From Minisyncoccia bacterium (lineage in GTDB: Bacteria; Patescibacteriota; Minisyncoccia; Phycocordibacterales; UBA9973), in contig JBMOIO010000002.1 of assembly GCA_049317285.1 (NCBI GenBank), positions 15,312-79,311 on the forward strand: 64,000 nucleotides of DNA, given 5' to 3'. Positions 15,268 to 33,928 of the stretch are shown here, one piece after another. How positions within the stretch are numbered: the stretch's first letter is position 1; each line of letters opens with the position of its first letter. Both the position numbers and the translations under genes were made by a program. The notes below the pieces were generated by a model. The model was not told the DNA's origin and did not search any database. It saw only the letters and a program-made list of their open reading frames with translations.

Positions 15268-17043
15268 CTATATCTCTTTCCATGTCTCAATATTCCATGA
15301 CCCGCTCGGACCGCTTGAAAAATTCATATTGGCAAGCCCTGATTCATAGGTGACTGTTGTTGAACCGCTGAGTGTAATAGATCTGCCCGTTGCCTGTTTT
15401 GCTCGAGCGCTCCCACTAAAGGAAACAGTGCCGTTTTGTGCGACAAGAACAACCGCTCCTGCACTCCCACTAATATCGATTGCTCTTGCACCGCCACACG
15501 AAGAACTGATCGGGCAATCTGAAAGAGAGATGACTAAAATATAACTTCCCGCTGTCCCAGATCCGCTTACCGGCGAACTTCCAGCGATGGTCACAGTACC
15601 GTCCACAATGATAACTCCACTCGACGAGCCATAGGCGCTTGAAAGTCGTAAGATTCCTGAACCGTTCACTACCAAGTTTCCAGTGACCCATAGTGTACCA
15701 GTGACGTTGAGGATTCCACTCCCTCCAACCGTCAAGTTTCCATTGATTTTTTTAGGACCAATACTTTGTGTTGAAGAACCGCCAACAGAAACACTTGAAG
15801 AAGTCCCTCCGAGCAGTGCCTCTTCTTGCCACGCTTCAATATTACCGTCTGATACCGGCCACGCAGAGGGCGCAGGCACGGCTTGTGTGGTGTTGCAGGC
15901 TTTATTGTTCCCCGTACCGCTTTGGCAATACAAGGTACCAGGAGCAGTCACGTTATCAATAGTTTGCGCACTGGCGTTTCCGGTGCCACTTGTACCGATA
16001 CGCAGCCGATTGAACTGACTGTCGCCATAAATGCGCGATGTTTGTCCTCCGACATAAAGGGAAAAATAACTATCGAGTGTACTTGGCGTAGTGGCGGACC
16101 ATGTTGCGCCGTAGCGACCTATCTTTGTACTACCATTTGCATAGCCGTTCGTATTTGCACCCACTGTATAGTAGTTGGTTGAAGAATTGGCCGCATCGAT
16201 CACGAGCCAATAGGTGGTGCCGGGAGTAAGGCTTGGATTACTTGCGAACTGCACGTTTACCCACCCATACGCAGTTGTGACCAGGGACGCAGAAAGTGCA
16301 CCAGAAGCAATCGTAGTAGCTCCGGGAGACCCGGCTGTCTCTGAGACAATGCGAACCGTTGCATTTGCGGGAACACCAGTCTTTTTTATGTAAAACTGTA
16401 CCTTACTGATAGGAGTGTCAGTAGCAACTGTAAAACTTTGTGCGAGGTCTTGCGTAGCGGTCGCATTCCCAAAAATAATAGAAGACGGGGGTGTGCCAGT
16501 AGAGCCATTTGACTGCTCTGCAGTAAGCGCTTCCCCATTTGCGGCATATACAGAACCTGTCACAAAGGTGCTGGAAGTTCCGTACACATCTCCGTTTGAA
16601 TAAATACTACCGTTGATACCAGAACTCCCCGACATTGAAATCCCTCCAAGACCGACTTGTAAGCCATAGTTAAATGCAGCCCCAACGCCCTGTGAGACAA
16701 CCATGGACACTGTACGATTTCTGTCGCGTGCGTCCCCGACAGATTCAATCTGTTTCTGCCCACCCGAAAGATCCGTGACACTTGTTGTTGTTTCGCTTGT
16801 TCCGAGCACCAGCGTATCACTGCTTGAAACCTGCATTCCGCTTCGCAGACGGTACAGCACATCCTCTACACCGCTCTCTGCAATAAAATAACTCTGCTTG
16901 GACTGGAGCGAGTCTTCCGCAATGCGATTTGCGTGGAGTACTGGCACAACGAGACCAAGTGCAATAGAGAGCGAGAGTGCAACAAAAAGCACCATGGTAA
17001 TAATCAGAACACTTCCTTGTTTGTTGGAGATTGTTTTTTTCAT
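15268..17043 (-). CDS. PilX-like type IV pilus assembly / pilus-tip protein, large S/T/G-rich ectodomain
   Basis: N-terminus KQGSVLIITMVLFVALSLSIALG...ANRIAEDSL resembles PilX_N; followed by ~550 aa Ser/Thr/Gly/Asn-rich beta-type sequence. Confidence 0.55.
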   Translation of the reverse strand: MKKTISNKQGSVLIITMVLFVALSLSIALGLVVPVLHANRIAEDSLQSKQSYFIAESGVEDVLYRLRSGMQVSSSDTLVLGTSETTTSVTDLSGGQKQIESVGDARDRNRTVSMVVSQGVGAAFNYGLQVGLGGISMSGSSGINGSIYSNGDVYGTSSTFVTGSVYAANGEALTAEQSNGSTGTPPSSIIFGNATATQDLAQSFTVATDTPISKVQFYIKKTGVPANATVRIVSETAGSPGATTIASGALSASLVTTAYGWVNVQFASNPSLTPGTTYWLVIDAANSSTNYYTVGANTNGYANGSTKIGRYGATWSATTPSTLDSYFSLYVGGQTSRIYGDSQFNRLRIGTSGTGNASAQTIDNVTAPGTLYCQSGTGNNKACNTTQAVPAPSAWPVSDGNIEAWQEEALLGGTSSSVSVGGSSTQSIGPKKINGNLTVGGSGILNVTGTLWVTGNLVVNGSGILRLSSAYGSSSGVIIVDGTVTIAGSSPVSGSGTAGSYILVISLSDCPISSSCGGARAIDISGSAGAVVLVAQNGTVSFSGSARAKQATGRSITLSGSTTVTYESGLANMNFSSGPSGSWNIETWKEI

Positions 17044-17044
17044 A

Positions 17045-17593
17045 TTATTGACTACGCAACAGCACGGTTGAATAAAATGACGCTGTTCTCACTACTCCGC
17101 CAGTTGTTGCGAGCGTGAGCTCTACTTTTACCCCCTCTCCGGCCGGTGTCGTAATTCGGCGGAACACCATAGCTGAGACAGTCACTTGGTTTGTCGAAAG
17201 AATACCAGTAGTACTGTTTTCGGTTATAGTTACTGCGCCATTAGAAACACCAAATACGACCGGTGTTCCAGCATTGAGAAGAGTAATAGCCCCGGGGTGC
17301 TGGCCAAATGTTCCACTCGAAATACTCTCGGCGTCGCGCACTTCGCGAGTAATTCGCTCAATAATGAGTTCTCCGTTGTTCTGTAGGCGCCGAAAGCTCG
17401 CGGCATTTGCATAGGTTCGCATCAGCACCACAAGCGAATGGACTAGTAGTACAGAAATCATCGCAAAGAGCGCAATATAAATCAGCAATTCAAGCAATGA
17501 GTACCCCGCAGCCCCCCTTCCTGAAAGGCGAGAGAGTTCATTGTTTTTTTTCCAGAAGGCGGACAACCCTTTGTTATTATGTCTATGCTTCAT
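17045..17593 (-). CDS. type IV prepilin-like minor pilin
   Basis: class III signal ...GAAG/YSLLELLIYIALFAM. Confidence 0.65.
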   Translation of the reverse strand: MKHRHNNKGLSAFWKKNNELSRLSGRGAAGYSLLELLIYIALFAMISVLLVHSLVVLMRTYANAASFRRLQNNGELIIERITREVRDAESISSGTFGQHPGAITLLNAGTPVVFGVSNGAVTITENSTTGILSTNQVTVSAMVFRRITTPAGEGVKVELTLATTGGVVRTASFYSTVLLRSQ

Positions 17594-17594
17594 A

Positions 17595-18128
17595 CTATTC
17601 TCTGATATTGCTTATATAAAATGCCAATGCCTTTGTCTGTGTTCCGGAAGATGCCGACCAGGAAACAGTGACTGTCACAAGCTTTGTCCCGGAGTCCAAG
17701 GTTCCGGTTGCAGAAATATCATCAGAGGCATCACGAGAAACAGCGGAGAGAACAACCGTGCGCGTAAAGCGGTCGACTACACCCGGAGTTTCCGTAAGTG
17801 TCCATACAGTCCCATTGTATGACAAATAGTAAGGAGTGCCTGGGGTAAGGGCGGCAATACTACTCCAGGACGCGTCACGAATCGATTTTGTTGCCTCGGC
17901 TCCCTCTTCAAGTAAGTACGACACTTGCGTACGCTCAAGTGCACGCTTCGAGACTTCAACCGTGTTTTGTATAGAGCCGATAAGGAGAATCAGCACCACC
18001 GCGATAATAGACGAGGCTATAATTACTTCTATAAGAAAAAATCCCGCCTTCGCCGCGCCATAGCCCGAAAGGGCGGAGGCGGGCTTTGTTCGGCTTCGGC
18101 GCGGCAAGCCGCGTGGATAAAAATTCAT
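17595..18128 (-). CDS. type IV prepilin-like minor pilin
   Basis: KAG/FFLIEVIIASSIIAVVL prepilin N-terminus. Confidence 0.65.
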   Translation of the reverse strand: MNFYPRGLPRRSRTKPASALSGYGAAKAGFFLIEVIIASSIIAVVLILLIGSIQNTVEVSKRALERTQVSYLLEEGAEATKSIRDASWSSIAALTPGTPYYLSYNGTVWTLTETPGVVDRFTRTVVLSAVSRDASDDISATGTLDSGTKLVTVTVSWSASSGTQTKALAFYISNIRE

Positions 18129-18136
18129 AAATCAAT

Positions 18137-18589
18137 TTAGTTTCTCGCAACAGTTCCGTTAGCAGTAACGGTAATAGTGCGGGTCGTGCTGCTTGGTAAT
18201 TGCAATTGCAGTGTACCATGCTGTGCAGTTGTTCCTCGCAATCGATCAAATGTTATTTCGGAGCCGCCACCAAAAAGCGCAACAGTTCCGAGTACTACTG
18301 GAGACTCGTAAAGAAAAATTTGATTCGTGCCGGACGTACTTTGATATGTTGATCCTTGAAAGAGGATTGCACGATCCGACTCGAAACGCACACCGTAGTT
18401 GGTGTTGTTAGTTCCTGCAAGTGTCTTTGCACGCGCTTCATTGATTACGGTGAGCACTGCATTGGTCGTATTTTGGAGCGCTTGTTCGCGTCTGAAACGG
18501 ATAACAGGGAGACTTATAACACCCACCAATACTGCGAGAATGGTCAGGACAATCAAAAGCTCGATAATAGTAAAACCTTTTGTGCTCAT
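18137..18589 (-). CDS. type IV pilin (prepilin N-methylation-type N-terminus)
   Basis: MSTKG/FTIIELLIVLTILAVL. Confidence 0.75.
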   Translation of the reverse strand: MSTKGFTIIELLIVLTILAVLVGVISLPVIRFRREQALQNTTNAVLTVINEARAKTLAGTNNTNYGVRFESDRAILFQGSTYQSTSGTNQIFLYESPVVLGTVALFGGGSEITFDRLRGTTAQHGTLQLQLPSSTTRTITVTANGTVARN

Positions 18590-18590
18590 A

Positions 18591-19796
18591 TTATTGAATA
18601 CTATCCATTAGCGAATACATTGGGGAGAGCATCGAGATTGCAAAAAATCCCACTGCCCCTCCGATAAAGATCATCAGTACCGGTTCAATAATAGTTGAAA
18701 GGTCTTTTGTTTTTGCATCAACTTCGGCTTCGTAAAATACAGCAATATCGAGAAGCATACTTGCAAGCTTCCCTGTTTCTTCCCCGACCGCCACCATCTC
18801 GCCGACCATCACCGGATAGAGATTCGTGTGCCGCTGCAGTACACTCGACATTGTTTCTCCCTTTTCGACCTGACTCTCAATTTCCGCAAGCACGGCCTTA
18901 TAGTAACTGTTTTGCAGCACATCCTTCGTAATACCGAGGGCCCGAGAAATACTCACTCCTGCAATCAGTAGGGATGAAAGGGTGCGGGCAGTGCGGGCGG
19001 CATTTACTTCCTGCACTAATACTCCCACAACTGGAATGCGAGTACTACTATAGTCTAAAAAGGTGCGAACTGCTGGGCGTTTCAGTGCGAAATACCCACC
19101 AGTCACTATCAGGGAAATACCAAGGAGGAGAAGGCCGATATGATTTGATATCATATCTGATACCCATACCACAATACGAGTTGAAGTAGGCAGATCCACA
19201 TTCAACTCCTTAAAGGTCTTTGTCAGTACAGGAACAATATAAATAAACATCAGTATGCCAATAATAAATATCGCGACAATAATAATTGCCGGATACATGA
19301 GTGCACTTTTGACCTTGCGGTTGAGATTGTAGCTCTTTTCAAGGTTCCCGCCGACCTCCATCAATGCTTCAGGTAATCCTCCTGACTCTTCTCCTGCCTT
19401 TACCATCGCAATAAAAAGACTTGAGAAAGTATTGGGGAACTTTGAAAGTGCGCTTGAAAAAGTCTCTCCATTATCAATACTTGCAATCAATGATTCAAAA
19501 ATTGTTTTAAAATAGCTGTTAGTGGTCTGTTTTTTCAAGACAACCAATGCTCGGGCAAGTGGAAGTCCTGCACGAAGCATGCCTGCGAGATTCTTTGTAA
19601 AAATAATCTTCTCACTGAGCTTAACCCGCTTCATCATACCGTCAAGCGTAAATGTTTTCTTCTTTTTTTCTACAACAGTGATAGGTGTAAGCCCCATCTC
19701 GCGCAGTGTAATTATCGCCTCGGTTTTACTGGACTCTTCTATCACCCCTTCGGTCATTGCGCCGGTTGCATTTCGAGCCGTATAAGAAAATACCAT
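18591..19796 (-). CDS. pilC: type IV pilus assembly platform protein PilC (GspF family)
   Basis: 401 aa; two GspF repeats; three TM segments. Confidence 0.85.
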   Translation of the reverse strand: MVFSYTARNATGAMTEGVIEESSKTEAIITLREMGLTPITVVEKKKKTFTLDGMMKRVKLSEKIIFTKNLAGMLRAGLPLARALVVLKKQTTNSYFKTIFESLIASIDNGETFSSALSKFPNTFSSLFIAMVKAGEESGGLPEALMEVGGNLEKSYNLNRKVKSALMYPAIIIVAIFIIGILMFIYIVPVLTKTFKELNVDLPTSTRIVVWVSDMISNHIGLLLLGISLIVTGGYFALKRPAVRTFLDYSSTRIPVVGVLVQEVNAARTARTLSSLLIAGVSISRALGITKDVLQNSYYKAVLAEIESQVEKGETMSSVLQRHTNLYPVMVGEMVAVGEETGKLASMLLDIAVFYEAEVDAKTKDLSTIIEPVLMIFIGGAVGFFAISMLSPMYSLMDSIQ

Positions 19797-19839
19797 ACAG
19801 TCAGTGTAACAAGGAGTGGGGTACTATGCTACCAGAGTA

Positions 19840-21585
19840 CTACTCGCTGACAACACGCAACACATCATCAATCGTTGTTTTTCCATGAACCGCTTGGAAT
19901 ATGCCGTCTTCGAGCATGGTCATCATCCCCTCTTTTTTTGCTTGTGCTTCCACTTCGTCGGCGGTACCATTGCGCAAAATGATTTCCTTAATGGCGGGCG
20001 TCACTTTCATTGCTTCGTGAATACCAATACGCCCTTTGTAGCCGTCTTCACTTTCTTCTGAAGGTTTTGGTTTATAAAAAGGAATCTTCTCCCATGGCGT
20101 TCCCTTTTCAATAACATTCTCGGATTCGAGAAACCCTCGCATTCGGTCGAGATCGAGAACATGCGTGAGTGAGGCTATTTCAGACGCTGAAAGAAAATAC
20201 TGCTCTTTAGCGGTAGTAAGTCGGCGCACTAACCGCTGGGCCAAAATTGCTTTTGCGGTCGAGACGATGAGAAACGGCTCAACACCCATATCAATCAAGC
20301 GCGGAATAGCGCCTGCGGCCGAATTGGTGTGGATAGTCGAGAGCACTAAGTGTCCGGTCAGAGCTGCGTTTACAGCAAGGTCTGCCGTTTCGCCGTCTCG
20401 CACCTCACCAACCATAATAATATTCGGATCCTGACGAAGTAGTGCGCGCAAACCGTTTGCAAACGTCATACCAATATCTGCCTTTACTTGCGTTTGATTG
20501 ATGCGTGGCATTTGGTATTCGATTGGGTCTTCGACTGTAGAAATATTTACTTCGGGGGTATTTAAAATATCCAACAATGTATAGAGTGTTGTTGTCTTAC
20601 CGCTCCCTGTCGGACCGGAAGCCAAAATGATGCCTGAGTGCTGACGCAATGCTTCATGAATCGCTTCAAGTCCGCTTCCATGAAAGCCAAGTCCCTCGAG
20701 CGTGAATCCGTGTGTACTCTCGCGCAAAATACGAATAACAGCTTTTTCACCATAGTAGGTAGGGATAGTGGACACGCGAAACGATACAGGCGCCTCGTCG
20801 AGCACTATTTTAAAGCGCCCATCCTGGGGCAAGCGCTTTTCATCGAGCTTGAGGTTTGAAAGCACTTTGATGCGCGCAGTAATCGCGGGCGCCGCCCCTT
20901 TCGGAAGCGTCATTGCATCGTGCAAGATACCGTCGATGCGGTAGCGGATAATCATTTCATTCTCCCCGGGCTCCATATGAATGTCCGATGCGCCTTGCAT
21001 GATTGCATGAGAAATAAGCGAGTCAACAATTTTGATTACCGGCAAGTCTTCTGCAAGCGCCTTGAGGTCTCCTTCAGATGCGTCAGCTTTTGCTTCAGGA
21101 ACAGCGTTCAGTGAAAGCGCTTCCTTTTGAATAATAGCCCCGAACTCCGCCTGCAGGCTTTTTCGGTACTGCTGCAAAACTGCCTTGATGGTCTCAGTGT
21201 CGGTGAGACGCGGCAAGATACGCAGCCCCGTTTTCTTTTTTATAAAGTCGATTACCGGCAGGTTGTCGATATCGAGGACCGCAATCTCCAAGTCGCTCCC
21301 CGACTTTTTGTACGCGACAATGTTATATCTACGCGCAATGGACTCCGGAATAAGCGCGAGAATGTCCGGGTCGAGACGCTCTTTCGTAAGCCCGATAAAC
21401 GGAATACCGAGTACATACGCTTCAAGGCGCTTGATTTCACTCTCCTTCACCTTTCCTTCGGTCAAAAGAAAATCTGAAAGCGATTGTGCGGTATTTTTCC
21501 GACGGTCATACGCTTCGATGTCGCCGAGGCTTGCAATGTTTGCATCGAGCACTAAATTGCGGAGTTTTGCTTGGTCGATTACCAT
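19840..21585 (-). CDS. pilB: type IV pilus assembly ATPase PilB (GspE family)
   Basis: 581 aa; Walker A GPTGSGKTTTLY, Asp box, Walker B, His box; N-terminal GspII_E domain. Confidence 0.9.
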   Translation of the reverse strand: MVIDQAKLRNLVLDANIASLGDIEAYDRRKNTAQSLSDFLLTEGKVKESEIKRLEAYVLGIPFIGLTKERLDPDILALIPESIARRYNIVAYKKSGSDLEIAVLDIDNLPVIDFIKKKTGLRILPRLTDTETIKAVLQQYRKSLQAEFGAIIQKEALSLNAVPEAKADASEGDLKALAEDLPVIKIVDSLISHAIMQGASDIHMEPGENEMIIRYRIDGILHDAMTLPKGAAPAITARIKVLSNLKLDEKRLPQDGRFKIVLDEAPVSFRVSTIPTYYGEKAVIRILRESTHGFTLEGLGFHGSGLEAIHEALRQHSGIILASGPTGSGKTTTLYTLLDILNTPEVNISTVEDPIEYQMPRINQTQVKADIGMTFANGLRALLRQDPNIIMVGEVRDGETADLAVNAALTGHLVLSTIHTNSAAGAIPRLIDMGVEPFLIVSTAKAILAQRLVRRLTTAKEQYFLSASEIASLTHVLDLDRMRGFLESENVIEKGTPWEKIPFYKPKPSEESEDGYKGRIGIHEAMKVTPAIKEIILRNGTADEVEAQAKKEGMMTMLEDGIFQAVHGKTTIDDVLRVVSE

Positions 21586-21671
21586 TCCTTACAGTATAGC
21601 AACAACAGTGGTTGTATGCGCAATAAAAAATTGCTTCTTATATAAATATAAGAAGCAATTTAAAAAAAATA

Positions 21672-22085
21672 CTATTTACCGAATGTTGCGCGTGCCCTTG
21701 TAGCGGCAGTGAGGACCATCGAGGTTTCAGTCAGTGTGGTGACATCATAGACATCCGGACTATCAACATCAACATCGATTTGTGTTTCATTGGCCATAAA
21801 CTTCCATTTACGATTTTTGACTGTTGCACCCTTTGCTATAGTAAGTGCTCCGCCCGTTTTGAACGTCCATACTTCGGCTGTGCCGAAATTATAATTAACC
21901 CATACACCATTCGAAAATTCTTCAACCTTGAGCAGTTTCCATGGCGTTGGGATAATGAGCTCGGTTTTTGTTTTTACAACAGGGGTCGTAGTATCCGGCT
22001 TTGTCGTATTGTCTTTACCACATGAAGCAATACCAACAAACAGTGCGATAAGGATGATCCATCCTTTGTTTAAAAGAGCTTTCAT
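21672..22085 (-). CDS. putative lipoprotein
   Basis: signal peptide with lipobox VGIASCG; 137 aa beta-rich. Confidence 0.5.
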   Translation of the reverse strand: MKALLNKGWIILIALFVGIASCGKDNTTKPDTTTPVVKTKTELIIPTPWKLLKVEEFSNGVWVNYNFGTAEVWTFKTGGALTIAKGATVKNRKWKFMANETQIDVDVDSPDVYDVTTLTETSMVLTAATRARATFGK

Positions 22086-22214
22086 ATTTATTTGTTTAAG
22101 TGTGAGAAATTAACGTTTTTTGAAGTCTAATAGAGATTCACCTATTTGTCAAGATTTTTTTGACTTTCTTCCAGCAATCAAAAACACCCCTGCTCGGGGT
22201 GTTTTTATATAGCA

Positions 22215-23474
22215 CTAGTCCTGAAAAATAATAAGGTTTGTCGCACTGTTGATATGGAAGTAGACGTATTCATCAGTTGCACCTCCGAAAGTGCGCTCTC
22301 GTGCTGCCCGCCCCTTAATCTTCCCATAAAACTCAATTGTGTCCCCTACATTTAGCGTTCGGCCATATGACTGATAGCTCACACTATAGGGCATTGTCGT
22401 ATACGGATCATCTTTTGCATCACGCCCGAAAGTCCAATTCCAATTACCCTCCTTGCAGGTATAGTTTGCCCAAGAGTATCCAGGAAAAGGATTATTATAT
22501 CCACCCTCATTACATTCTGTAAAGAAGTATGATCCTGCATTTGCCGTATCAAAATCCCCTTCCCACGCTACGCCCGATGGAAATTGAATAGGATCAGGAA
22601 GCGGATTAAAGGTTCCATTACTCTTATAGTCCCCCGGAGTAGGGAGCTTTGTTTCAACGCCGTTGATGTTTACATAAAAATCTACCCAGATACTAAACCG
22701 AGTGCGCTCAGTATCGCGAACAGTCAATTGTCCAGAGGAAGAAAAGTTAATATTGTATACACCCGCCTCTGTTACAGTCAGTACTTTACCACTCGCTCCT
22801 GGAGAAAGAGAGGTTGGGTGATAGGTTGAAATAGTACTACAGGTAGGACTAAGCATGCTTAAAGAAAACTTCATCAGGTTTGGATTGTAATTTTTGGTGG
22901 TGGGGAGTTCCCAAATCGCATTTGCAATATTGTGTGTCAACAGACATCTATTCCCTACAACTTGTTCTGTACAGTTCCCTGTCTTTATATTGCGCACATG
23001 CCCAAAAGGAACTGTTTCTTGGTTACCCGAAATGTTTCTGCACATATCTGGTACACAGAGGTTTATCACCCCATTAGCATCAGCACATAGCGCCTTGTTA
23101 CTGTCATTTGCCACGCGCTGATTTTGAATATAGCTATTTGCCAAAATATTTCCACTTACCGCAATGTTTCCCACTACACCACCAGCAGTACTTCCTACAG
23201 CAACAGTTGAATTAGTGTCTACAGGAGTACCTCCGCGCACCACACCTTGAAGCGAAAGCGTTTGCTCAAAAGAACTGTTTTGAGAAACAAGAAAATCTTG
23301 CACAGAAAGTCCACCGCTTTTTATCTGTGCAGGACCAACATGAACAGGGAGCGATTTATTTCCCGCATACAGATCAGCCGATGGAGCTGCCCACTGAGCA
23401 GTAACAGAAACACCAAAGGCAAATACGAGTCCGAAGGCGATATATTTAAGATTGGTGAGAAGTGTTTTTTTCAT
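22215..23474 (-). CDS. secreted G/S/T/N-rich surface protein, paralog 3 of a tandem family
   Basis: Sec signal MKKTLLTNLKYIAFGLVFAFG; shares the N-terminal region and the C(A)D..G...LC cysteine motif with the two upstream genes. Confidence 0.55.
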   Translation of the reverse strand: MKKTLLTNLKYIAFGLVFAFGVSVTAQWAAPSADLYAGNKSLPVHVGPAQIKSGGLSVQDFLVSQNSSFEQTLSLQGVVRGGTPVDTNSTVAVGSTAGGVVGNIAVSGNILANSYIQNQRVANDSNKALCADANGVINLCVPDMCRNISGNQETVPFGHVRNIKTGNCTEQVVGNRCLLTHNIANAIWELPTTKNYNPNLMKFSLSMLSPTCSTISTYHPTSLSPGASGKVLTVTEAGVYNINFSSSGQLTVRDTERTRFSIWVDFYVNINGVETKLPTPGDYKSNGTFNPLPDPIQFPSGVAWEGDFDTANAGSYFFTECNEGGYNNPFPGYSWANYTCKEGNWNWTFGRDAKDDPYTTMPYSVSYQSYGRTLNVGDTIEFYGKIKGRAARERTFGGATDEYVYFHINSATNLIIFQD

Positions 23475-23477
23475 AAA

Positions 23478-24233
23478 TTATTGGCAGCTGTTAAAGGTGA
23501 TGATAAACGATGGACTATCTTCGCTAAGTCCAAAGGCAGTCGCATTGTCGGAGAACGGGATTGGTGTTCCTGTATCTAAACACATCCAATTCATTGCAGT
23601 AATAGTATAACTTCCCAACGATACAACTGTCGGAACTGTGGTGTTGTTCACTGTATAGATTTGACCAGTAGCATTGTTTCGAATAGTAACAGCATCTCCT
23701 ACTTGGTTTGGTCTAAAAGAAATCAATACAGATCCCATTGGTTCTAGTGCTCCTGTCTCTGTAGTCCACACTGCAGGATCACACAACACAAGCGTTCCTG
23801 TTTCGTCGGCACATACTGCACCATCAGTAGGATTTGCGAGCGGATTGCTTTGCACCGTGTAATTAGTATTTGCCACGCCTCCTGAAACGGCAACATGTGT
23901 TGGCACTTCGACATTAGGACCTCCAAAACGAACAGTTCCTACTGTCGTACCAGGTGCACCCCCACGAAGCCCTCCTGTGAAGAAGGTTGTTCCATCAATC
24001 TGTGCGTTTGCAAGCGCGATAAACCATTCACCTATCGAAAGCGAGCCTGCCTTCACCTGATCAGTACTATTCACGTACACTGGTGTTGAGGCGTTATTGT
24101 TGGGGAATGAAGCACTCGGGCCGGAATAGGAATTGGTGAGCCCACCCCATGACGCATGTGCATAGCTTGCCCCCATAGCAAGAACAAGACCGAGAGCGAT
24201 GAATTTTAAATTAGTGAGAAGTGTTTTTTTCAT
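23478..24233 (-). CDS. secreted surface protein, paralog 2 of the tandem family
   Basis: MKKTLLTNLKFIALGLVLAMG signal; GGLRGGAPG; VCADETGTLVLC; C-terminal ITFNSCQ. Confidence 0.55.
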   Translation of the reverse strand: MKKTLLTNLKFIALGLVLAMGASYAHASWGGLTNSYSGPSASFPNNNASTPVYVNSTDQVKAGSLSIGEWFIALANAQIDGTTFFTGGLRGGAPGTTVGTVRFGGPNVEVPTHVAVSGGVANTNYTVQSNPLANPTDGAVCADETGTLVLCDPAVWTTETGALEPMGSVLISFRPNQVGDAVTIRNNATGQIYTVNNTTVPTVVSLGSYTITAMNWMCLDTGTPIPFSDNATAFGLSEDSPSFIITFNSCQ

Positions 24234-24242
24234 AAAAATAAT

Positions 24243-24986
24243 TTAACAGCTAAAGTTAAAGGTGATGGTGTATGAATCTCCGTCATTGAGAACAAAATCT
24301 GTTCCTCCTCCCCGGGTCATAACAGGGTCGTTTGTAGTGGTACACACTATATCCGTATTGGTGATGGTATAACTACCAATCGGCACCACTTTTCCAGTTG
24401 AAATGCCCATAGTGAATCCTGGAGCCATATCAAGTCTGTGCAACGATCCATCATTATTATTATTCACCATCACAAACGTACCAGTCTGCTGGGAGCCCTC
24501 AATATAAAAGTCTAGAGAGGCGCTTGGGGTTGCAGCCACAGGTGCCGGTGCAGCGGGGGCAGTAGAAGGAGAAGTGCAAAGGAAAAATGTTCCGTCTGCA
24601 TTAGCGCACACCGGTTTTTTCCCACCACCACTGACAAGAGAGTTTGACTGTATTGTTCCAAGAGTGCTGATAGAGCCGTTTATAGTAGTATTCACCCCGT
24701 AGCTACTGTTACCAATCGCAACCGTGTTTGATCCATCGCTCTGAATGTTGCCCCCTGTCACAACTCCTCCAGCAAATGTTTCTTGACTGAACAAAGCGTT
24801 TCCTCGAGCCTGAAATGTTGTTGTAGAAAATCCTCCTGCTTTATCTTGACTAAGCGCGCTCGTATTGATTGGTGCATCAGTGTTTGCGCCAAATGCTCCT
24901 GTTGTTGGAGGAGTGTAGGCTGAAACAGCGCCGGCAATGCCGAGAGCGAGACCAAGAGCGATAAGGCGGTAATGGATGAGTTTCAT
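24243..24986 (-). CDS. secreted surface protein, paralog 1 of the tandem family
   Basis: Sec signal; VCANADGTFFLC; C-terminal ITFNFSC; 10-nt spacing to next gene. Confidence 0.55.
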   Translation of the reverse strand: MKLIHYRLIALGLALGIAGAVSAYTPPTTGAFGANTDAPINTSALSQDKAGGFSTTTFQARGNALFSQETFAGGVVTGGNIQSDGSNTVAIGNSSYGVNTTINGSISTLGTIQSNSLVSGGGKKPVCANADGTFFLCTSPSTAPAAPAPVAATPSASLDFYIEGSQQTGTFVMVNNNNDGSLHRLDMAPGFTMGISTGKVVPIGSYTITNTDIVCTTTNDPVMTRGGGTDFVLNDGDSYTITFNFSC

Positions 24987-24987
24987 A

Positions 24988-25323
24988 TTAGTTATTTAAA
25001 CTGTTAAGCATTTGTAGTCGATCGCTGGGCGTTGTTTTTGTCGGAGACGAAGTTGCTCCGAGTACGCTCCCTTGAGCAAAGACCTGCTCAGGAGTCTTGT
25101 TCACCGGAAGAGAAGACTCAGAAAGTGAGCGAAGTGCCTCTTCAGGACTGAGTGCCTTATCCTTTTGTTCCATGAAATACCATACCGCTAACCCAACAAC
25201 AATAACGATACATATAATAGCCACTGCTGTGCGTTGTTTTTTCTGTTCATAACCACTGAGAACCGCATGTTCTTCAAGAACGCGTGGATTGTAGTTATTG
25301 TTTTGTACTGCGGTAGATTCCAT
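24988..25323 (-). CDS. small single-pass membrane protein
   Basis: 111 aa; one TM (VAIICIVIVVGLAVWYF). Confidence 0.4.
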   Translation of the reverse strand: MESTAVQNNNYNPRVLEEHAVLSGYEQKKQRTAVAIICIVIVVGLAVWYFMEQKDKALSPEEALRSLSESSLPVNKTPEQVFAQGSVLGATSSPTKTTPSDRLQMLNSLNN

Positions 25324-25336
25324 GACAATAAGTATA

Positions 25337-26605
25337 CTAAAATTCTATGAATATCGGCTTTTTTACCGCTACGCATGCACCCTGTGGGTTAACTGTCATA
25401 TTAGTAGGGATGCTAAGTTGTACATCCGCAATATTTGGACACCAGTCCGTAGTAAGGTCAGGGTAACCAATCGGCACGCATTGACTGCTTTCGTTTATCG
25501 TATATCCAGCTGGTGCTGCAAGTTGTACACCAATAATATTCGGGCAGACATCACCGACCCCTCCATCGCCCGGAGGGGTGCCGCCTCCTCCAGTACCATT
25601 AGGACAGCTGTTGTTTACTGGTGTCGCTCCGTCTGGGCAACGCTTAGTAATCTGAGTACAAGAAGAGTCTGTACAGTCTGGGCAAATACCGTTAGAAGGT
25701 TTTGGTGCACCATTTGGACAGAAGAGATTTTTCTGTGTTGGGGTACAGTTACCAGTTACCAGGTCAATGACCAGTGTCGAAGGAAGGTTGTTTCTGAAAT
25801 ACGCCTGATACGGTGGCTGACAGGCTGCACCTAGTCCACCTGGTGGAACACATTGCCCATTGGTGTCTATTGTATAACTAGGAGGAAGTGCATTTTTCTT
25901 TATGTGAGTGTATGGACTGTTAGGACAATACTGTGTTGCAAGAAGACAGTTTCCGTCAGTGTCCCGAGTGAGCCCTTGTTGGGTGAGGTATGCTTGGTCT
26001 TGATTCCCTGCAATATCAAGACAGAGGTCCACAGTCGGTGTTGTCGTTATCTTTGCATCACCTTGAACCGCGATCCAGCCAAGCACCTCAGAGCCCCAAA
26101 TGGAGCCATTAATACTGCGCGTTGTTCCGTTGAGTGCCCCAAGAGTGAGTCCGTATCCGCTTCCGGAGAGCGAAAGGAACCCATCCCAGCCTCCTAAATA
26201 AGCATTATCCGCCAGAGCACCACTGCAACCAGAAGCAAAAACAGAGCAGGCGCGTGCCCATCCCTCGACAGTAGAGGTCACAGTATTAAGGCGTGCTCCC
26301 GCTGTACATCCGCTTGTCGGACAACCAGCATCGTTAAATGTAATCCAGCCAATATTGGAAGACCACGCAGTACCAGAAACTGTTCCTGTTATCGGATCAA
26401 TCGTTACGCCATAGGTATACCCTGTACAAGTATTAGAGTCCGCTGCGTCAGTACAGTTGTTGAGCGATATCCACCCGGTATTTGAAGACCACATGCTTCC
26501 GCTTGCATTATTATTGGTACCCGCGCGCAAAGAAGACGCAGTGAACAATACAATGGCGGTTACAACAGTGAGTGCAATGAAAAGTACTTTAGTGCGAGTC
26601 TTCAT
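25337..26605 (-). CDS. secreted Cys-rich protein with W-rich repeats and C-terminal KKPIFIEF tail
   Basis: signal peptide; four xWSSNxGWIxxN-type repeats; Cys-rich C-terminal half; terminal ...VCPNIIGVQLAAPAGYTI...KKPIFIEF. Confidence 0.6.
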   Translation of the reverse strand: MKTRTKVLFIALTVVTAIVLFTASSLRAGTNNNASGSMWSSNTGWISLNNCTDAADSNTCTGYTYGVTIDPITGTVSGTAWSSNIGWITFNDAGCPTSGCTAGARLNTVTSTVEGWARACSVFASGCSGALADNAYLGGWDGFLSLSGSGYGLTLGALNGTTRSINGSIWGSEVLGWIAVQGDAKITTTPTVDLCLDIAGNQDQAYLTQQGLTRDTDGNCLLATQYCPNSPYTHIKKNALPPSYTIDTNGQCVPPGGLGAACQPPYQAYFRNNLPSTLVIDLVTGNCTPTQKNLFCPNGAPKPSNGICPDCTDSSCTQITKRCPDGATPVNNSCPNGTGGGGTPPGDGGVGDVCPNIIGVQLAAPAGYTINESSQCVPIGYPDLTTDWCPNIADVQLSIPTNMTVNPQGACVAVKKPIFIEF

Positions 26606-26685
26606 GAATACATAGAGTATAGTGCACATGCGACAACACGCGCAAGGAGTTATCCCGTGTTATGTAAAGAAAAATTGAAAGAACA

Positions 26686-27582
26686 TTAAAACTCAGTAAA
26701 GATCGGTTTCTTTTTATTGAAAATAAAACTCGAATAAGAACTACCGTTACATGCAGCCTGTCCTCCTGTTACTGTGCCAGGTACAATAATATCAGTCGCT
26801 ACTTCCCATGTATCCCCTCCGCGAGGAACTAGTGTTACTGTTTTTGTACTTGCGCCCCATGTGACAGTACATGTTCCACTACCACCAATATGAGTGATGA
26901 CAATTCGTTTTGTTGATCCGCTCGGAGCGGTTGGTGGAGTACCAGGGTCGACAGGAATAGCCGGGTCATACGGCGGATCTACATGTAGCACTGTTGTCTG
27001 AATACAATTTCCTCCTGAAAATGAGTACCCTGCAGGAATCGCTGTTTGTGTGCCAGAAAGATTAGGACATACATCTGTTACTGGAGGACACGCAGCGGTA
27101 CTGCATGCTTGAGATTCAACTGCACTTCCCACACACGGAGCACCTCCGTTTAATGGTGGAGTACAGGTGCGAGTACGAGTCTGCGTGCCTGTTTGTCCGC
27201 AGGCGTTTACACTGCAATCACTCCATGGCCCCCATGGGCCCCAGAAACCATCAACAGGAGTCAATGGGCACGCAGCGGTACTGCATGGTTGAGACTCAAC
27301 CGAGTCTCCCACACAAGGAGCACCTCCGTTTAATGGTGGAGTACAGGTGCGAGTACGAGTCTGCGTGCCTGTTTGTCCGCATGCACTTACACTACAGTCA
27401 CTCCATGGTCCCCATGGACCCCATGATCCGTCGACAGGAGTTGGCGGAACAACAGTGTATTCGATCGAGAAATTAAAATACTCCCACGCCGCATTAGCGC
27501 GCTCTGGAATTGCAAACGAACAAACTGCAATGAGTACAAGAGTGGTAAAAAAGAGTGCGAGTTTTTGTTTCATAATATGCAT
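26686..27582 (-). CDS. secreted protein with two tandem thrombospondin type-1 (TSP1) repeats and C-terminal KKPIFTEF tail
   Basis: signal peptide; twice WGPWGPWSDCSVxACGQTGTQTRTRTCTPPLNGGAPCVG..VESQxCSTAAC, matching the TSR layout WxxWxxW / CSxxCG / RxRxC / GGxxC / 6 Cys; terminal NKKKPIFTEF. Confidence 0.75.
   Translation of the reverse strand: MHIMKQKLALFFTTLVLIAVCSFAIPERANAAWEYFNFSIEYTVVPPTPVDGSWGPWGPWSDCSVSACGQTGTQTRTRTCTPPLNGGAPCVGDSVESQPCSTAACPLTPVDGFWGPWGPWSDCSVNACGQTGTQTRTRTCTPPLNGGAPCVGSAVESQACSTAACPPVTDVCPNLSGTQTAIPAGYSFSGGNCIQTTVLHVDPPYDPAIPVDPGTPPTAPSGSTKRIVITHIGGSGTCTVTWGASTKTVTLVPRGGDTWEVATDIIVPGTVTGGQAACNGSSYSSFIFNKKKPIFTEF
27082..27441 (-). repeat. 2 x 180-bp near-identical tandem repeat encoding the two TSP1 modules
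   Basis: copies begin at 27089 and 27269 on the plus strand; ~90% identical with a ~66-nt perfect core; antisense ORF 27105..27476 echoes it. Confidence 0.85.
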
Positions 27583-27589
27583 AGTTCTA

Positions 27590-29563
27590 TTAACATCTAA
27601 ATTGCGGCCAAACCTCAACTTCAGTTGAAGTTGTTGAAAAGCACTGCGAATCTATATTCGGAGGAAACAACCCGGCGTAAGGTGTTGACGGTCCGTACTC
27701 TTCTATACAGCTTTCACCTGCAGGAATAGTGACCTCTTTTGTTTCAAAACCAATAAATGAAGCATAGAACCTCCATCGCGCCGTAAATGTTACAGGGTTC
27801 GGGAGAGTGTATGTCTGTGGCGGATATGGGTCCCCAATATTCCACTCTTGTGCAAGACAGATACGAATAAGTCTTTTATAGTTACCCCAAAATCCACATG
27901 AACCCGGAATACATCCAAATGAGGATCCAACAGGGTCATGGGTGTACACCATCCCTGAGGCAGGTATCTTTTGTACGGCGTCTTGTACCTTTATCCCTCC
28001 CTTAAAGCTCGCTGAAAAGACCCCTGCAGAGGCTTGCGCTGTACCAATCGTTGCTGTCCCAAAAAGACTTCCACCGGAAGAAATACTGTTTTCACCTATA
28101 ATCGAAACTAGTGCTCCATTTACACCTCCTTCAAGCGAAGCAGTGTCGACATTCGTTGATTCTGATTGAATCGATGTCGTAACAGAAATGGTTTCATTTT
28201 GCTGATACGAGCTTTTGTTGGTATTTATTGTGAAATGAAGCGGGCCGTTTGCCGAACCCTGAATCGTATACGTTGCCGCAGAAGCAGTAGAAGTAATTCC
28301 CCAAGCAAATAAGAAGAGGAGAAGAGCAATGGTATTTACTGTCGCACTATTATTAGCAGCCTGCTTTTTCTTGATATACCACAGTACTGCACCCAAGAGT
28401 GCAAGTACTCCAAGAACCAATAGTGCGATAGTGCCCCATTTTACGGGACGCTTCACTGAAGTAGTCTCAAATACAACAGACATATCATCAAATACTTCCC
28501 CTGTTGCGTCCTTCAATACAAGTGTCACTTCTGGATTGTAACAAGCATTAAGAATAGGAATCTCTATTGTAGAAAAGACGCTTCCTTCATCAAGTACAAG
28601 CAGAGATTCATATGCCGCAGCACAGCTTCGCCCTGTATCGCTCTTTATTACTACATTCGCCACTATTTCCTTTGTAGTAGCAGACCACAAAAGAGAAAGT
28701 CGCGCGGTTTCATTTTTAATATAAAAATCCTTATCAAGAGTCATATTGGCAATCTTTGCGGTCGGACCAGCAACAGTGTATGGAAAAGATATCATGCCAG
28801 ACGCACCATCAAGCGTGACAGTAAGGTTATATAACCCCGCTTTCTCGCTACGAGGAAGCGTAAGGATGAGCGGCTGTTCTGGCTGTTCAGAGAGTGCAAT
28901 TGCTCCAGTATCTCCTCCTACAACTGCAATCTCTTCACCAAATGCACTCCCTTCGCGGGTTATATAGCGAGGAGTAACAGAAAGGGGGGCTCCTGTCGGG
29001 TTTTTTATTACGCACAAAAGCCGAAACGATTCTTCTGGCAAAAGAATAACGTTTGCGTGGGGTATATACCCCGTCGCAGTGACAGGTTTCACTTCAGTTC
29101 TGCAAGAGAGAGGGTCGATGGAGACGCCGTTTTCTGATGCAACAAGCGTTACTTCTCCTGCAACTGTTATTCCGAACAGAAAACCGCTTTGGTTTCGGGC
29201 GCGCACGAGAACCGTATAGGATCCATCGAGGGTTGTGGGTACATCATAAATAACTTCGCGTGAAAGAGAGCTATTCGGGGCAAGTGTCAAAATTTCTTCA
29301 TATATTTTCTCGTCAACAAGGGTCTGCTTACCCCCTTCATTACTCACTAAGCTCACGCTATAGCGAACATCGGACTGCATCCCTTCACCGTTGTTGAGCT
29401 CAAACCCGACCGTAATCTCTCCTCCTTCATACGAGAGTACTCGCGCGTTTTGAATATTAACCGAGGCAACCTTGACCGGTCCATTTTCTGATACTTGCGC
29501 ACTTGCCACTATAGGGAAGAGCGCGAGTGCAGCGAGAAGAAATGAAAATAGATAGCGATTCAT
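27590..29563 (-). CDS. large surface protein, two extracytoplasmic domains separated by a TM hairpin
   Basis: start reset to MNRYLFSFLLAALALFPIVASA; central WGTIALLVLGVLALLGAVLWYIKKKQ and IALLLFLFAWGITSTASA hydrophobic segments. Confidence 0.5.
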   Translation of the reverse strand: MNRYLFSFLLAALALFPIVASAQVSENGPVKVASVNIQNARVLSYEGGEITVGFELNNGEGMQSDVRYSVSLVSNEGGKQTLVDEKIYEEILTLAPNSSLSREVIYDVPTTLDGSYTVLVRARNQSGFLFGITVAGEVTLVASENGVSIDPLSCRTEVKPVTATGYIPHANVILLPEESFRLLCVIKNPTGAPLSVTPRYITREGSAFGEEIAVVGGDTGAIALSEQPEQPLILTLPRSEKAGLYNLTVTLDGASGMISFPYTVAGPTAKIANMTLDKDFYIKNETARLSLLWSATTKEIVANVVIKSDTGRSCAAAYESLLVLDEGSVFSTIEIPILNACYNPEVTLVLKDATGEVFDDMSVVFETTSVKRPVKWGTIALLVLGVLALLGAVLWYIKKKQAANNSATVNTIALLLFLFAWGITSTASAATYTIQGSANGPLHFTINTNKSSYQQNETISVTTSIQSESTNVDTASLEGGVNGALVSIIGENSISSGGSLFGTATIGTAQASAGVFSASFKGGIKVQDAVQKIPASGMVYTHDPVGSSFGCIPGSCGFWGNYKRLIRICLAQEWNIGDPYPPQTYTLPNPVTFTARWRFYASFIGFETKEVTIPAGESCIEEYGPSTPYAGLFPPNIDSQCFSTTSTEVEVWPQFRC

Positions 29564-29674
29564 AAAAATAAAAATTGTATTACAATTCAGTATACCTAAC
29601 TTAATCCTACTATAACAACAAGTTATACCCATATATAAAAAACCTCTTTGCTATAAAGCAAAGAGGTTGGAGGA

Positions 29675-32541: not shown

Positions 32542-33513
32542 TTAGATTCGCATTCTTTGTCTGATTTCATACGTATCACCATGCATCAACAATCCGCGAT
32601 ACGAGTTAACCGTTTCCGACTTAGGATATCCCTTAAGCTTTTTGAATATCTTTCTCTTTGTGGTGGTTCGTATTTGACGATGATAGGGAAAATGTATCCA
32701 CCCAAGAAAATCGACACCTGTTGCGAATGTCTTGATGTACACTTTGTGCTCGTGCATTTGAAGCTTTAACTTTTCATTCAAGAAAGCATGGATTTTTTGA
32801 AGAATGCCTTCCAAGTATTCCTTTGTACTGGACAGTATGACAAAATCATCCGCATAGCGGATATAGTATGTTACTCGAAGCCCCTGCTTCATGAACATAT
32901 CAAATTCATGCATGTATACATTTACCAACAATTGAGAAGTAAGGTTTCCGAGCGGTAACCCCACTCCTTCTCTCGTCGTATGAAAACTTGAGGTAACTTC
33001 CCGGATGAGCCACAACAGTTCTTCATCCTCAACATGACGCTTCAAAATTAAAACAAGTATTTCATGATCGATACTTGCAAAGAATTTCTTGATGTCACAC
33101 TTGAGTACATAACATGTCCTCGTATTGTTCTTTGAAACCCTCAGGGCAAATTCCTGAAAACGATCAATTGCTCTGTGAGTTCCCTTGTTCACACGACATG
33201 AAAACGAGTCATGAATGAATCTCTGTTCAAAATAAGGATAAAGCGTCTTATATATTAAATGATGTAACAGTCTGTCTCGGACAATCGCCTTGTGGATATT
33301 CCGAGGCTTTGGGTCAGAGATATTAAAAGCCCAGTATGGCGCATGAGTGTACGTCCGACGGTGAAGCAAGGTGTGCAAGTCGACCAGGTTGTCCGAAAGT
33401 TTCGCCTGGTATTGTATGACATCTTTTTTATGTCGCTTTCCACGAAGAAAACGCTCCCAGGTAACAAGGAGGTTTTCCATCGATATGATATCTTTGTATT
33501 TATGAATCAGCAT
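32542..33513 (-). CDS. diversity-generating retroelement reverse transcriptase
   Basis: 323 aa; RT motifs 1-7 including YIRYADDFVIL and the DGR-specific LPLGNLTSQL (I/LGxxxSQ) in place of the group II QGxxxSP. Confidence 0.9.
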   Translation of the reverse strand: MLIHKYKDIISMENLLVTWERFLRGKRHKKDVIQYQAKLSDNLVDLHTLLHRRTYTHAPYWAFNISDPKPRNIHKAIVRDRLLHHLIYKTLYPYFEQRFIHDSFSCRVNKGTHRAIDRFQEFALRVSKNNTRTCYVLKCDIKKFFASIDHEILVLILKRHVEDEELLWLIREVTSSFHTTREGVGLPLGNLTSQLLVNVYMHEFDMFMKQGLRVTYYIRYADDFVILSSTKEYLEGILQKIHAFLNEKLKLQMHEHKVYIKTFATGVDFLGWIHFPYHRQIRTTTKRKIFKKLKGYPKSETVNSYRGLLMHGDTYEIRQRMRI

Positions 33514-33531
33514 ACATCAACCAATATCACA

Positions 33532-33544
33532 CCCCCCCCCCCCC
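33532..33544. repeat. C13/G13 homopolymeric tract
   Basis: 13 consecutive C on plus strand, 19 nt upstream of the RT start codon and inside the 5' region of the Avd-like frame. Confidence 0.9.
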
Positions 33545-33560
33545 GACACAAACTCCTCTT

Positions 33561-33908
33561 GTCCTTGTCAGAGCGAAGGAAAGTTATGAAGTTTGGCATA
33601 AGCACTTAGTAAACATAAACCGTGTAGACAGATACACCATCGGTGCAAAAATTGACGAGGTATTTCTTTCCTTGCTTGAAAATATTTTTAGAGGTATCTA
33701 TGCTCACGACAAATTTGAGAAGTTATCTGTGGTATCACAGTCACTCGGGAAAAATGATTTATTGAAATTCTTCTTGCAGATCGGTTGGGAACAAAAAGTT
33801 GTTGACCATAAAATCTATGGTGCTTTAATCCTTAAACTTGATGAAGTAGGACGAATGCTCAACGGCTGGAAGAAAAATCTTCAAGAAAAAACTCCCACTA
33901 ACAAGTAG
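33561..33908 (+). CDS. Avd-like four-helix-bundle protein (23S rRNA IVS-protein / bAvd family); start codon uncertain
   Basis: frame continuous from ~33546 to 33908 (..ESYEVWHKHLVNINRVDRY..IGWEQKVVDHKIYGALILKLDEVGRMLNGWKKNLQ); ORF track gives only 33672..33908 from a TTG; no in-frame ATG; opposite strand to RT, TR and target. Confidence 0.45.
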   Translation, partial: VLVRAKESYEVWHKHLVNINRVDRYTIGAKIDEVFLSLLENIFRGIYAHDKFEKLSVVSQSLGKNDLLKFFLQIGWEQKVVDHKIYGALILKLDEVGRMLNGWKKNLQEKTPTNK

Positions 33909-33928
33909 TGAGAGAAATCAAATAAGTA

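Follow-up and report, generated by a model that had tools for sequence, protein, structure and literature searches.

Three tandem genes for putative exported proteins lie close to a set of type IV pilus genes in the genome of a Minisyncoccia bacterium, and the locus raises the question of whether their products belong to the pilus or to some other surface structure. The stretch of DNA analysed, hereafter the window, comprises 64,000 nucleotides (nt) of the contig JBMOIO010000002.1 (assembly GCA_049317285.1, positions 15,312 to 79,311), and the three genes—designated A, B and C in their order within the triplet—are located on its reverse strand (Table 1). The class Minisyncoccia belongs to the phylum Minisyncoccota, presumably the group formerly called Patescibacteria or candidate phyla radiation. 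An earlier note, written from the sequence alone, had placed the genes within the type IV pilus operon, their products being candidate pilus-associated adhesins or as alternative tip or surface subunits. We propose instead, with moderate confidence, that the triplet encodes fibrous adhesins, exported by the Sec route and provided with interchangeable heads, which proteins would constitute three subunits of a surface cassette specific to the Patescibacteria (Paceibacteria/Minisyncoccia) and would not be pilins.

Paralogy, the N-terminal domain family and its predicted export signal

When compared by BLASTP, A and B were 30% identical throughout their length (E = 1e-14), B and C were 39% identical over the first ~170 amino acids (aa; E = 3e-26), and A and C were 33% identical over ~138 aa (E = 6e-14). 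The three are thus tandem paralogues, as had been supposed, with a similarity that extends far beyond the signal peptide and is not limited to it. Common to them is an N-terminal module of ~140 aa; A and B have a further C-terminal domain of ~100 aa in common, and the remaining ~270 aa of C constitute a domain different from that tail. The differences in length, which had been attributed to divergence by indels, are therefore the result of domain replacement, since the C-terminal part of C is unrelated to the A/B tail and not an indel variant of it. The other features that had been described from the sequence were found as quoted: the motif [VL]CA[DN]xxGxxxLC (C127/C137 in A, C141/C151 in B and C130/C140 in C), the start MKKTLLTNLK[FY]IA[LF]GLV in B and C, the related ends ITFNFSC of A and ITFNSCQ of B (C ends in NLIIFQD), and the richness in Gly, Ser, Thr and Asn, which residues amount to 36-43% of A, B and C versus 21-26% of PilB and PilC. 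The tandem order likewise held, but the spacing, given as 4-10 nt, had to be corrected to 9 nt between A and B and 3 nt between B and C.

A word-indexed search for homologues, weak on a low-complexity family such as this one, returned only 12 and 9 matches, so that an exhaustive HMMER search over 1.84 billion cluster representatives was required. The latter gave 3,364 relatives of the N-module at E <= 1e-3, 325 at E <= 1e-10 and 56 at E <= 1e-30, the conserved region being in all instances the N-terminal ~140 residues. Many members of the family consist of the N-module with little else (137-150 aa), some being the module alone (135-154 aa), and others have C-terminal extensions that bring the total length up to 631 aa. 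From 148 representatives we built a consensus and a hidden Markov model (HMM). After the signal peptide the consensus begins with A-A-[YWF]-T-x-P..P-P-x-x-N(93%)-x-x-x-P(95%), continues with Q(93%)-x-K(97%)-x-G-G-L(96%)-S-V..F(97%) and several conserved Gly residues, and is closed by C(100%)-A-D-x-x-G(99%)-x-x-x-L-C(100%); the two Cys accordingly never vary, and certain Gly, Gln, Lys, Pro and Asn residues are almost as constant. A, B and C match this HMM at E = 1e-40 to 1e-45 (A at 1.5e-40), and their distances from Q-x-K to the first Cys—80, 82 and 80 residues, respectively—fall within the 78-84 residues that prevail in the family.

The family is without annotation. At E <= 1 the three proteins had no match among the Pfam and NCBIfam models, and none was obtained among the PHROGs; profile searches of the PDB, with the N-domain and with the first protein of the cassette described below, gave nothing meaningful (the best match, a nanobody, had E = 0.07); and the Pfam scan of the 148 members recovered only sporadic Hint and DUF4215 tails. 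The source names seen for members were all 'hypothetical protein' of Paceibacterota, Minisyncoccia or 'bacterium', the identical proteins in public collections being labelled 'MAG: hypothetical protein ACOYMZ_01010/01020 [Minisyncoccia bacterium]'. Neither the literature nor the libraries searched contained a description of the N-domain family, its signal peptide, the triplet or the five-gene cassette; what is known is the general design of a surface adhesin or fibre formed by an anchor and a variable head.

Regarding export, inspection and hydropathy analysis disclosed in all three proteins one hydrophobic segment, within the first ~25 residues, preceded by a basic n-region and followed by a putative A-x-A site, namely VSA/Y, AHA/S and VTA/Q (the slash marking the presumptive cleavage point): MKLIHYRLIALGLALGIAGAVSA/YTPP in A, MKKTLLTNLKFIALG..AHA/SW in B and MKKTLLTNLKYIAFG..VTA/QW in C. 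By these features, the three proteins would be exported by a Sec-type route, in agreement with the earlier note; the segment could be either a cleaved signal peptide or a retained signal anchor. That the hydrophobic segment is the only one and that the Cys counts are even (4 in A, 4 in B and 8 in C, versus no Cys at all in PilB, PilC or the pilins) are indications of an extracellular location, where A, B and C would be disulfide-bonded surface proteins. In the family as a whole, Ala occupies two positions of the c-region in 72% and 61% of the members, and an aromatic residue (Y, W or F) then follows in 95%.

The n- and h-regions are conserved to an unusual degree, M-K-K-x-L-L-T-N-L-K-x-I-A-x-G being invariant in 14 representatives whose overall identity is ~30%; and this invariance suggests a specific interaction. 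We considered a recent gene conversion as the origin of the signal peptide shared by B and C, and ruled it out: the first 16 codons of the two genes differ at synonymous sites, and the DNA identity of the 59-nt repeat that spans them is no higher than 81%, so that the constraint must be on the peptide itself. A search with the signal-peptide pattern found two loci in a genome collection and three in a metagenome collection. In that a signal is conserved at the protein level over divergent cargo, the triplet resembles the YSIRK-G/S-type signal peptides; the motif, in contrast, is a different one, for which neither NCBIfam nor Pfam has a matching model.

The five-gene cassette and its relation to the type IV pilus genes

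The genomic context was compared in 13 distinct loci (the window, L001, L002, L004, L006, L008, L009, L011-L014, L016 and L017) and in one further JGI contig, available as gene tables without DNA. The N-domain HMM detected exactly three tandem genes in each of the 13—a copy number that the earlier note had proposed to verify in related genomes—and no N-domain gene other than A, B and C in the 64 kb of the window. Wherever the upstream sequence sufficed, the triplet was preceded by the same two genes in the same order, a Cys-rich secreted protein with a WSSNIGW domain and then a membrane protein, the entire cassette being divergent from nusA and conserved in its place beside that gene.

The first of these proteins consists in the window of an N-domain of ~190 aa with repeated (Y)AWSSNIGWI, a variable middle part and the C-terminal tail KKPIFIEF. 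Without any match in Pfam or the PDB, it belongs to a family of at least 195 homologues, among which all the named ones are from Patescibacteria and some have PKD-type domains in their tails. In all the loci examined in this regard (the window, L001, L002, L004, L009 and L011-L013), the first cassette gene ended in a tail of the type K-x-P-[IV]-[FY]-x-E, with the variants KKPIFIEF, STPIFKEF, KHPSYIES, RPVYTEPNQ and KPVYTER; the tail may serve for sorting or for the binding of a partner. The membrane protein is of 101-134 aa across loci, typically ~105: tblastn placed its homologues immediately ahead of the triplet in L001, L002, L009, L011, L014 and L016, and genes of 101-114 aa occupied the same position in L004, L012, L013 and L017. 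In the other loci the big first gene adjoins nusA, whereas in the window three extra genes intervene, including one for a secreted protein with two thrombospondin type-1 (TSP1) repeats and the tail KKKPIFTEF, a gene without a counterpart at that position in related loci.

Some side observations pertain to this part of the window. The TSP1 repeats of that bacterial protein are of the eukaryote type. A Cys-bounded mini-motif of ~25 residues, C-x-N-[IL]-x-G-x-Q-x-x-[IV]-P-x-G-...-C, recurs after the N-domain of the C-type proteins, and is present several times in the first cassette protein, in the TSP1 protein and in their relatives. Farther upstream, a gene for a protein of 680 aa (with a signal at its N-terminus, paired transmembrane segments at residues ~400-460 and a weak LPXTG-anchor-like match) is preceded by a strong terminator and, therefore, probably starts the transcription unit containing the cassette.

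Whether the triplet is part of the pilus operon, as had been claimed, can be judged from the interval between C and pilB. The two genes are not immediate neighbours, since two predicted terminators, a promoter-like site and a lipoprotein gene intervene. The hairpin directly 3' of C would, by these sequence signals, end the transcription unit of the cassette, so that A, B and C would not be cotranscribed with pilB. A hairpin with a run of U residues also followed the third gene in 8 of the 9 other loci checked (L001, L002, L004, L009, L011, L012, L014 and L016), irrespective of whether pilB came next, which brings the count to 9 of 10 with the window included. Moreover, PilB was 68-92% identical across loci versus 28-58% for the triplet proteins (tblastn, aligned segments), and in distant loci the triplet match covered the N-domain only.

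Downstream from the triplet three arrangements were encountered. In the window, L001, L002, L004 and L014, the order is pilB, pilC, three pilins, a protein of ~590 aa, tpiA and pgk; in the rearranged loci L011 and L013, pilB alone is followed by unrelated genes; and in L009, L012, L016 and the JGI contig, there is no pilus gene, 0-3 small genes preceding tpiA-pgk. The cassette is thus kept in place without pilus genes in 4 of the 11 lineages that are informative, from which distribution we conclude that the triplet belongs to a five-gene unit of its own and that the adjacency to the pilus genes is frequent but dispensable.

Nor do the proteins themselves have the marks of pilins. The three pilins of the window exhibit the prepilin signals KG/FTIIE, AG/FFLIE and AG/YSLLE, with matches of TIGR02532 (prepilin N-terminal) to the 150-aa pilin and of N_methyl to the 182-aa pilin; the N-termini of A, B and C (MKLIHYRLIALG, MKKTLLTNLKFIALG and MKKTLLTNLKYIAFG, respectively) contain no G/FxxxE and match neither model. 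In the structures predicted with AlphaFold2 (AF2), only residues 2-25 form a helix; an extended stretch rich in Pro comes next and then beta structure, with no alpha-beta roll of the pilin fold. The pilus block has, in addition, a tip-protein candidate of its own in the 591-aa protein that closes the row of pilins, which protein looks like a PilX-like or tip-associated large subunit. As separate observations, the 591-aa protein is rich in Gly, Ser, Thr and Asn, weakly matches PHROG phage proteins whose function is unknown (E = 1e-7), and is 52-87% identical to its orthologues in a manner that does not track the identity of PilB. Some 5 kb beyond the pilus block lies a gene for a ComEC-type competence channel, a location that fits the idea of pili for DNA uptake.

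If, alternatively, A, B and C were pilus-associated adhesins—that is, Sec-exported non-pilins displayed by the adjacent type IV pilus, with the N-module bound to a minor-pilin tip complex—the triplet would be expected to remain with the pilus genes. To a certain extent this is what occurs: the triplet lies on the same strand and beside pilB-pilC-pilins in the five loci just listed, and pilB alone has stayed by the triplet in L011 and L013 despite the changed neighbourhood. Such pilus partners are, furthermore, an established category, in which PilY1, TcpF and CofJ are non-pilins with Sec signals; and the triplet is like PilY1/PilC and TcpF/CofJ in its Sec-type signals, in its adjoining pilus genes and in a possible adhesive role. 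It differs from them in having no sequence similarity (Pfam and NCBIfam gave no PilY1/PilC match, and the heads are predicted as a sandwich and a jelly roll, not a beta-propeller), in its separate predicted transcription unit and in its persistence without adjacent pilus genes. Since the entire region from nusA to tpiA-pgk is syntenic, the adjacency may be merely inherited. With the lack of a prepilin signal and the recurrent hairpins before pilB, these considerations lead us to regard a pilus-displayed adhesin as rather unlikely; from the previous interpretation we would accordingly retain the adhesin, as plausible, and regard the membership in the pilus and in its operon as unsupported.

Table 1. 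Positions of the triplet, the cassette and the other features of the window that are discussed in the text
Feature	Position (nt)	Strand	Remarks
Paralogue A	24243-24986	-	247 aa; first of the triplet
N-module of A	24576-24986	-	Residues ~25-137; nt include the signal peptide
Paralogue B	23478-24233	-	251 aa; second of the triplet
N-module of B	23781-24233	-	Up to C141-x9-C151
Paralogue C	22215-23474	-	419 aa; third of the triplet
N-module of C	23055-23474	-	Up to C130-x9-C140
Mini-motif of C	~22971-23045	-	Residues ~144-168; after the N-domain, CxNIxGxQxxVPxG
Predicted head of C	22218-22763	-	Residues ~238-419
Single-pass membrane protein	24988-25323	-	111 aa; second cassette gene; stop 1 nt upstream of A
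Cys-rich secreted protein	25337-26629	-	430 aa; first cassette gene
TSP1 protein	26686-27618	-	310 aa; Pfam PF00090, E = 1.6e-24
680-aa protein	27590-29632	-	Probable start of the transcription unit
Terminator before the 680-aa gene	29641-29668		
Terminator hairpin	22179-22207	-	Directly 3' of C; 12-bp stem and UUUUU; free energy (dG) -21.3 kcal/mol, z = -3.5
Promoter-like site	22124-22152	-	TTGACA-17-TAGACT; between C and pilB
Lipoprotein gene	21672-22085	-	137 aa; between C and pilB
Second terminator hairpin	21628-21661	-	dG -17.1, z = -4.5
Pilus block	15268-21585	-	Adjacent context, not part of the family
pilB	19840-21585	-	NCBIfam PilB, 2e-153
pilC	18591-19796	-	NCBIfam PilC/GspF, 8.7e-94
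Three prepilin-signal pilins	18137-18589, 17595-18128, 17045-17593	-	
591-aa protein	15268-17043	-	Closes the pilin row; N-terminus QG/SVLIITMVL
ComEC-type gene	8392-9858	-	
Diversity-generating retroelement (DGR)	32542-35107	-	
DGR reverse transcriptase	32542-33513	-	Pfam RVT_1, E = 6.9e-24
bAvd-like match	33672-33908	+	Weak
DGR template repeat	33926-34047	-	
DGR variable repeat	34391-34512	-	3' end of the 240-aa target gene 34385-35107
TraG/TrwB-like gene	39824-42562	+	912 aa

Predicted heads, the proposed stalk and the possible assembly of a fibre

The head of A (residues ~150-247) was predicted by AF2, from an alignment of 13 sequences, as a seven-stranded immunoglobulin-like (Ig-like) beta-sandwich with a per-residue confidence score (pLDDT) of 76-92, and its matches in Foldseek were sandwiches of the Ig-like, CnaB, pVHL-beta, SpyCEP and RrgA types (best E = 4.9e-4, probability 1.0); the head of B is homologous to it. 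For C, the single-chain prediction from a 150-sequence alignment yielded a helix at residues 2-25 (pLDDT 88-95), an N-module with block means of pLDDT 56-86, which rose to 82-89 across the C-x9-C hairpin and the mini-motif, and a head in the form of a C1q/TNF-like beta jelly roll (pLDDT up to 88). Apart from the C130-C140 hairpin the N-module of the model had almost no intrachain secondary structure. The structural check that the earlier note had recommended would therefore assign an Ig-like fold to A and, by homology, to B, and a jelly roll to C.

In the PDB, Foldseek related C to 4-1BBL (probability 0.99), TNF, RANKL, ExsFA and the jelly rolls of viral capsids, at an E of only ~2e-3. Against BFVD there were 55 matches at E <= 1e-3 (top E = 6.6e-7), and the named ones were headed by collagen-like proteins that contain a C1q domain; phage proteins with such a domain, a minor tail protein and fibre proteins of the Peptidase_S74 type were also among them, an architecture in which a stalk bears a trimeric head. 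In sequence, the head matched neither the C1q nor the TNF models of Pfam. The predicted succession of N-terminal membrane helix, stalk and jelly-roll head is the one of C1q/TNF-headed fibres—the Bacillus exosporium proteins BclA/ExsFA, the collagen-like C1q proteins of phages and giant viruses, and the TNF ligands—and the order of the parts corresponds to that of the type-II TNF ligands. Unlike the collagen/C1q fibres, C has no Gly-X-Y repeat, its stalk being a nonrepetitive domain of ~115 aa with a C-x9-C cap; and A and B differ in bearing an Ig-like head instead.

The heads vary much more than the modules that carry them. Between the A orthologues of related strains (P0004-P0006) the N-domain was 92-96% identical, whereas the head was 40-56% identical; and the tails of the 39 triplet proteins from the 13 loci fell by BLAST into 22 groups, 3 of which were composed of near-absent tails, certain triplet genes being tailless. 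The divergence of the three exported paralogues is thus concentrated mostly in the C-terminal part, and the previous suggestion that they are possibly variable is plausible. Tail types shift, moreover, between gene positions across loci: the C1q/TNF-like tail, present in 8 of the 13 loci, is usually in the third gene, but in L008 and L013 is in the first; and a Hint-containing tail was observed in L004 (gene 1), L012 and L014.

A conserved N-terminus and a hypervariable C-terminus are also the architecture of polymorphic toxins or effectors, in which circumstance the N-module would serve for delivery and the C-termini would be toxins, and Hint-type autoprocessing domains do occur in a few relatives, for example in gene 1 of L004 and in L014. 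Pfam, however, found no toxin domain in the tails of A, B and C or in most tails of the relatives; no small gene of the immunity type comes after A, B or C, with no small open reading frame in the 3-9 nt between the genes; and the folds predicted for the heads, Ig-like and C1q-like, are binding folds. We accordingly consider a toxin cassette highly improbable.

In another scenario the proteins would be structural components of the envelope, the N-module being the lattice-forming or wall-binding part of an S-layer, a wall lattice or their anchors. The place of the cassette among housekeeping genes, fixed in every locus sampled, and the members that are an N-module alone would both suit such a role. 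Lattice proteins, though, would be unlikely to swap heads freely and to exhibit the contrast in identity between heads and N-modules cited above; the heads are predicted to have typical binding folds; and the Pfam scans of A, B, C and the 148 members detected no SLH or other wall-binding domain. To this alternative we therefore assign a low probability.

The fixed number of three genes would be accounted for if the three proteins each contributed a chain to a heterotrimeric stalk, joined through their N-modules, following the logic of the A, B and C chains of C1q. Position 1 is in fact an orthogroup of its own, and an ancient one—of the 90 best matches across loci, 68 go to position 1—and the predicted N-module is extended without intrachain pairing, while the tight gene spacing suits an equal expression. 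Positions 2 and 3, on the other hand, are interchangeable and not separable as orthogroups; head sizes differ greatly inside a triplet; and the C1q/TNF-like head, normally a trimer, is present on only one chain per triplet in 8 of the 13 loci. The stalk spacing from Q-x-K to the Cys ranges across the triplets from 78 to 97 aa, with insertions that do not covary among the three chains of a locus. A register-locked heterotrimer was rejected on account of these noncovarying stalk lengths, and the single C1q-like head per triplet likewise argues against it; heterotrimers in general seem to us improbable.

What we favour, then, are fibrous adhesins with replaceable heads, in which three parts would be distinguished: an unusually conserved Sec-type signal peptide or anchor, whose A-x-A site is followed by an aromatic residue; an extended module of ~115 aa, rich in Gly, Ser, Thr and Asn and closed by the invariant C-x9-C hairpin; and a replaceable C-terminal binding head, Ig-like in A and B and C1q/TNF-like in C. 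The conserved N-module would oligomerise, or dock the protein on a conserved envelope partner, or both, and the two co-encoded cassette proteins would be the candidate partners. The head would project outward and bind a ligand of the host cell or the environment, changing fast through divergence and domain swapping. Because these organisms are understood to live attached to other cells, host-surface structures are the likely ligands. C would most likely form a homotrimer, by analogy, because heads of the C1q/TNF type are generally trimeric.

Several points weigh against this account. pilB follows the triplet in 7 of the 11 informative loci, and only in the other 4 is none nearby; and because pilB alone was kept in two rearranged loci, its adjacency could reflect a functional tie. 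The assignment of the N-module as an extended stalk, a docking element or both comes from the monomer AF2 model of C, and the first AF2 run on A, with its alignment of 13 sequences, had left the N-domain unpredicted at a pLDDT of ~35. The TM-scores from Foldseek were low (0.15-0.29), and the E values in the PDB only ~1e-3; low TM-scores are to be expected for a flexible extended chain, so that the fold match is suggestive rather than a proof. Finally, homotrimeric fibres alone leave the fixed number of three unexplained, and both the ligand and the docking partner are hypothetical.

Related systems, further features of the window and significance

The conserved N-terminal part with a fast-diverging and exchanged head is a characteristic that the triplet shares with phage receptor-binding proteins and tail fibres, and, as stated, a minor tail protein is among the best viral structural matches of C, along with fibre proteins of the Peptidase_S74 type. 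The triplet differs from those systems in being chromosomal, at a fixed site among housekeeping genes, with signal peptides and with no phage genes nearby, and the signal-peptide pattern had no match in the viral contigs of IMG/VR. The loci of sortase-dependent pili (RrgA/B/C) likewise contain three tandem genes for secreted structural proteins, and the A/B head is CnaB/RrgA-like; in the triplet, by contrast, the shared domain is N-terminal and unrelated in sequence. By inspection A, B and C have no C-terminal LPXTG, and no Sortase-family match was found among the flanking open reading frames (ORFs) scanned, ~25 ORFs of the window with at least 100 aa lying outside that scan.

Other features, independent of the cassette, deserve mention. 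In relatives without the pilus block, a large Peptidase_S74 protein—an intramolecular chaperone domain of the fibre type—is encoded after pgk (L009, 15750-17771; JGI contig 3300050821, gene at 15593-18862) and is another candidate surface fibre. The window also contains a diversity-generating retroelement, the template and variable repeats of which are 83% identical and differ by 21 A-to-G, A-to-T or A-to-C mismatches at template adenines, which account for nearly all the mismatches of the core repeat; a weak bAvd-like match lies by it on the opposite strand. A coupling-protein-type ATPase of the TraG/TrwB kind, recognised through weak Pfam matches, is kept in synteny in related loci, where the gene is annotated as DUF8128.

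Going further, the cassette might build an unrecognised host-contact organelle common to the Paceibacteria/Minisyncoccia, in which three classes of fibre, with heads that set the host specificity, would be directed by their dedicated signal peptide to an anchor that the membrane protein and the WSSNIGW protein make up, the neighbouring PilB-type ATPase perhaps powering or coordinating the whole. As a speculation this seems to us unlikely.

Type IV pili matter in Saccharibacteria (PMC11623550), yet beyond such pili the means by which the ultra-small Patescibacteria recognise and attach to their hosts are largely obscure, and the cassette is a concrete second candidate. The adjacency of pilB is no evidence for the status of pilus subunits, and an easy annotation error is thus corrected. 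The strict rule of three genes, together with the invariant signal peptide, points to a mechanism of assembly or sorting that is not understood. The heads change quickly between close relatives, as would be expected of a determinant of host range. With the cassette widespread, unannotated and fixed in its genomic position, the conserved N-module can serve as a search handle, and the N-domain HMM would allow an inventory of the heads in metagenomes to be drawn up and compared with host or habitat.

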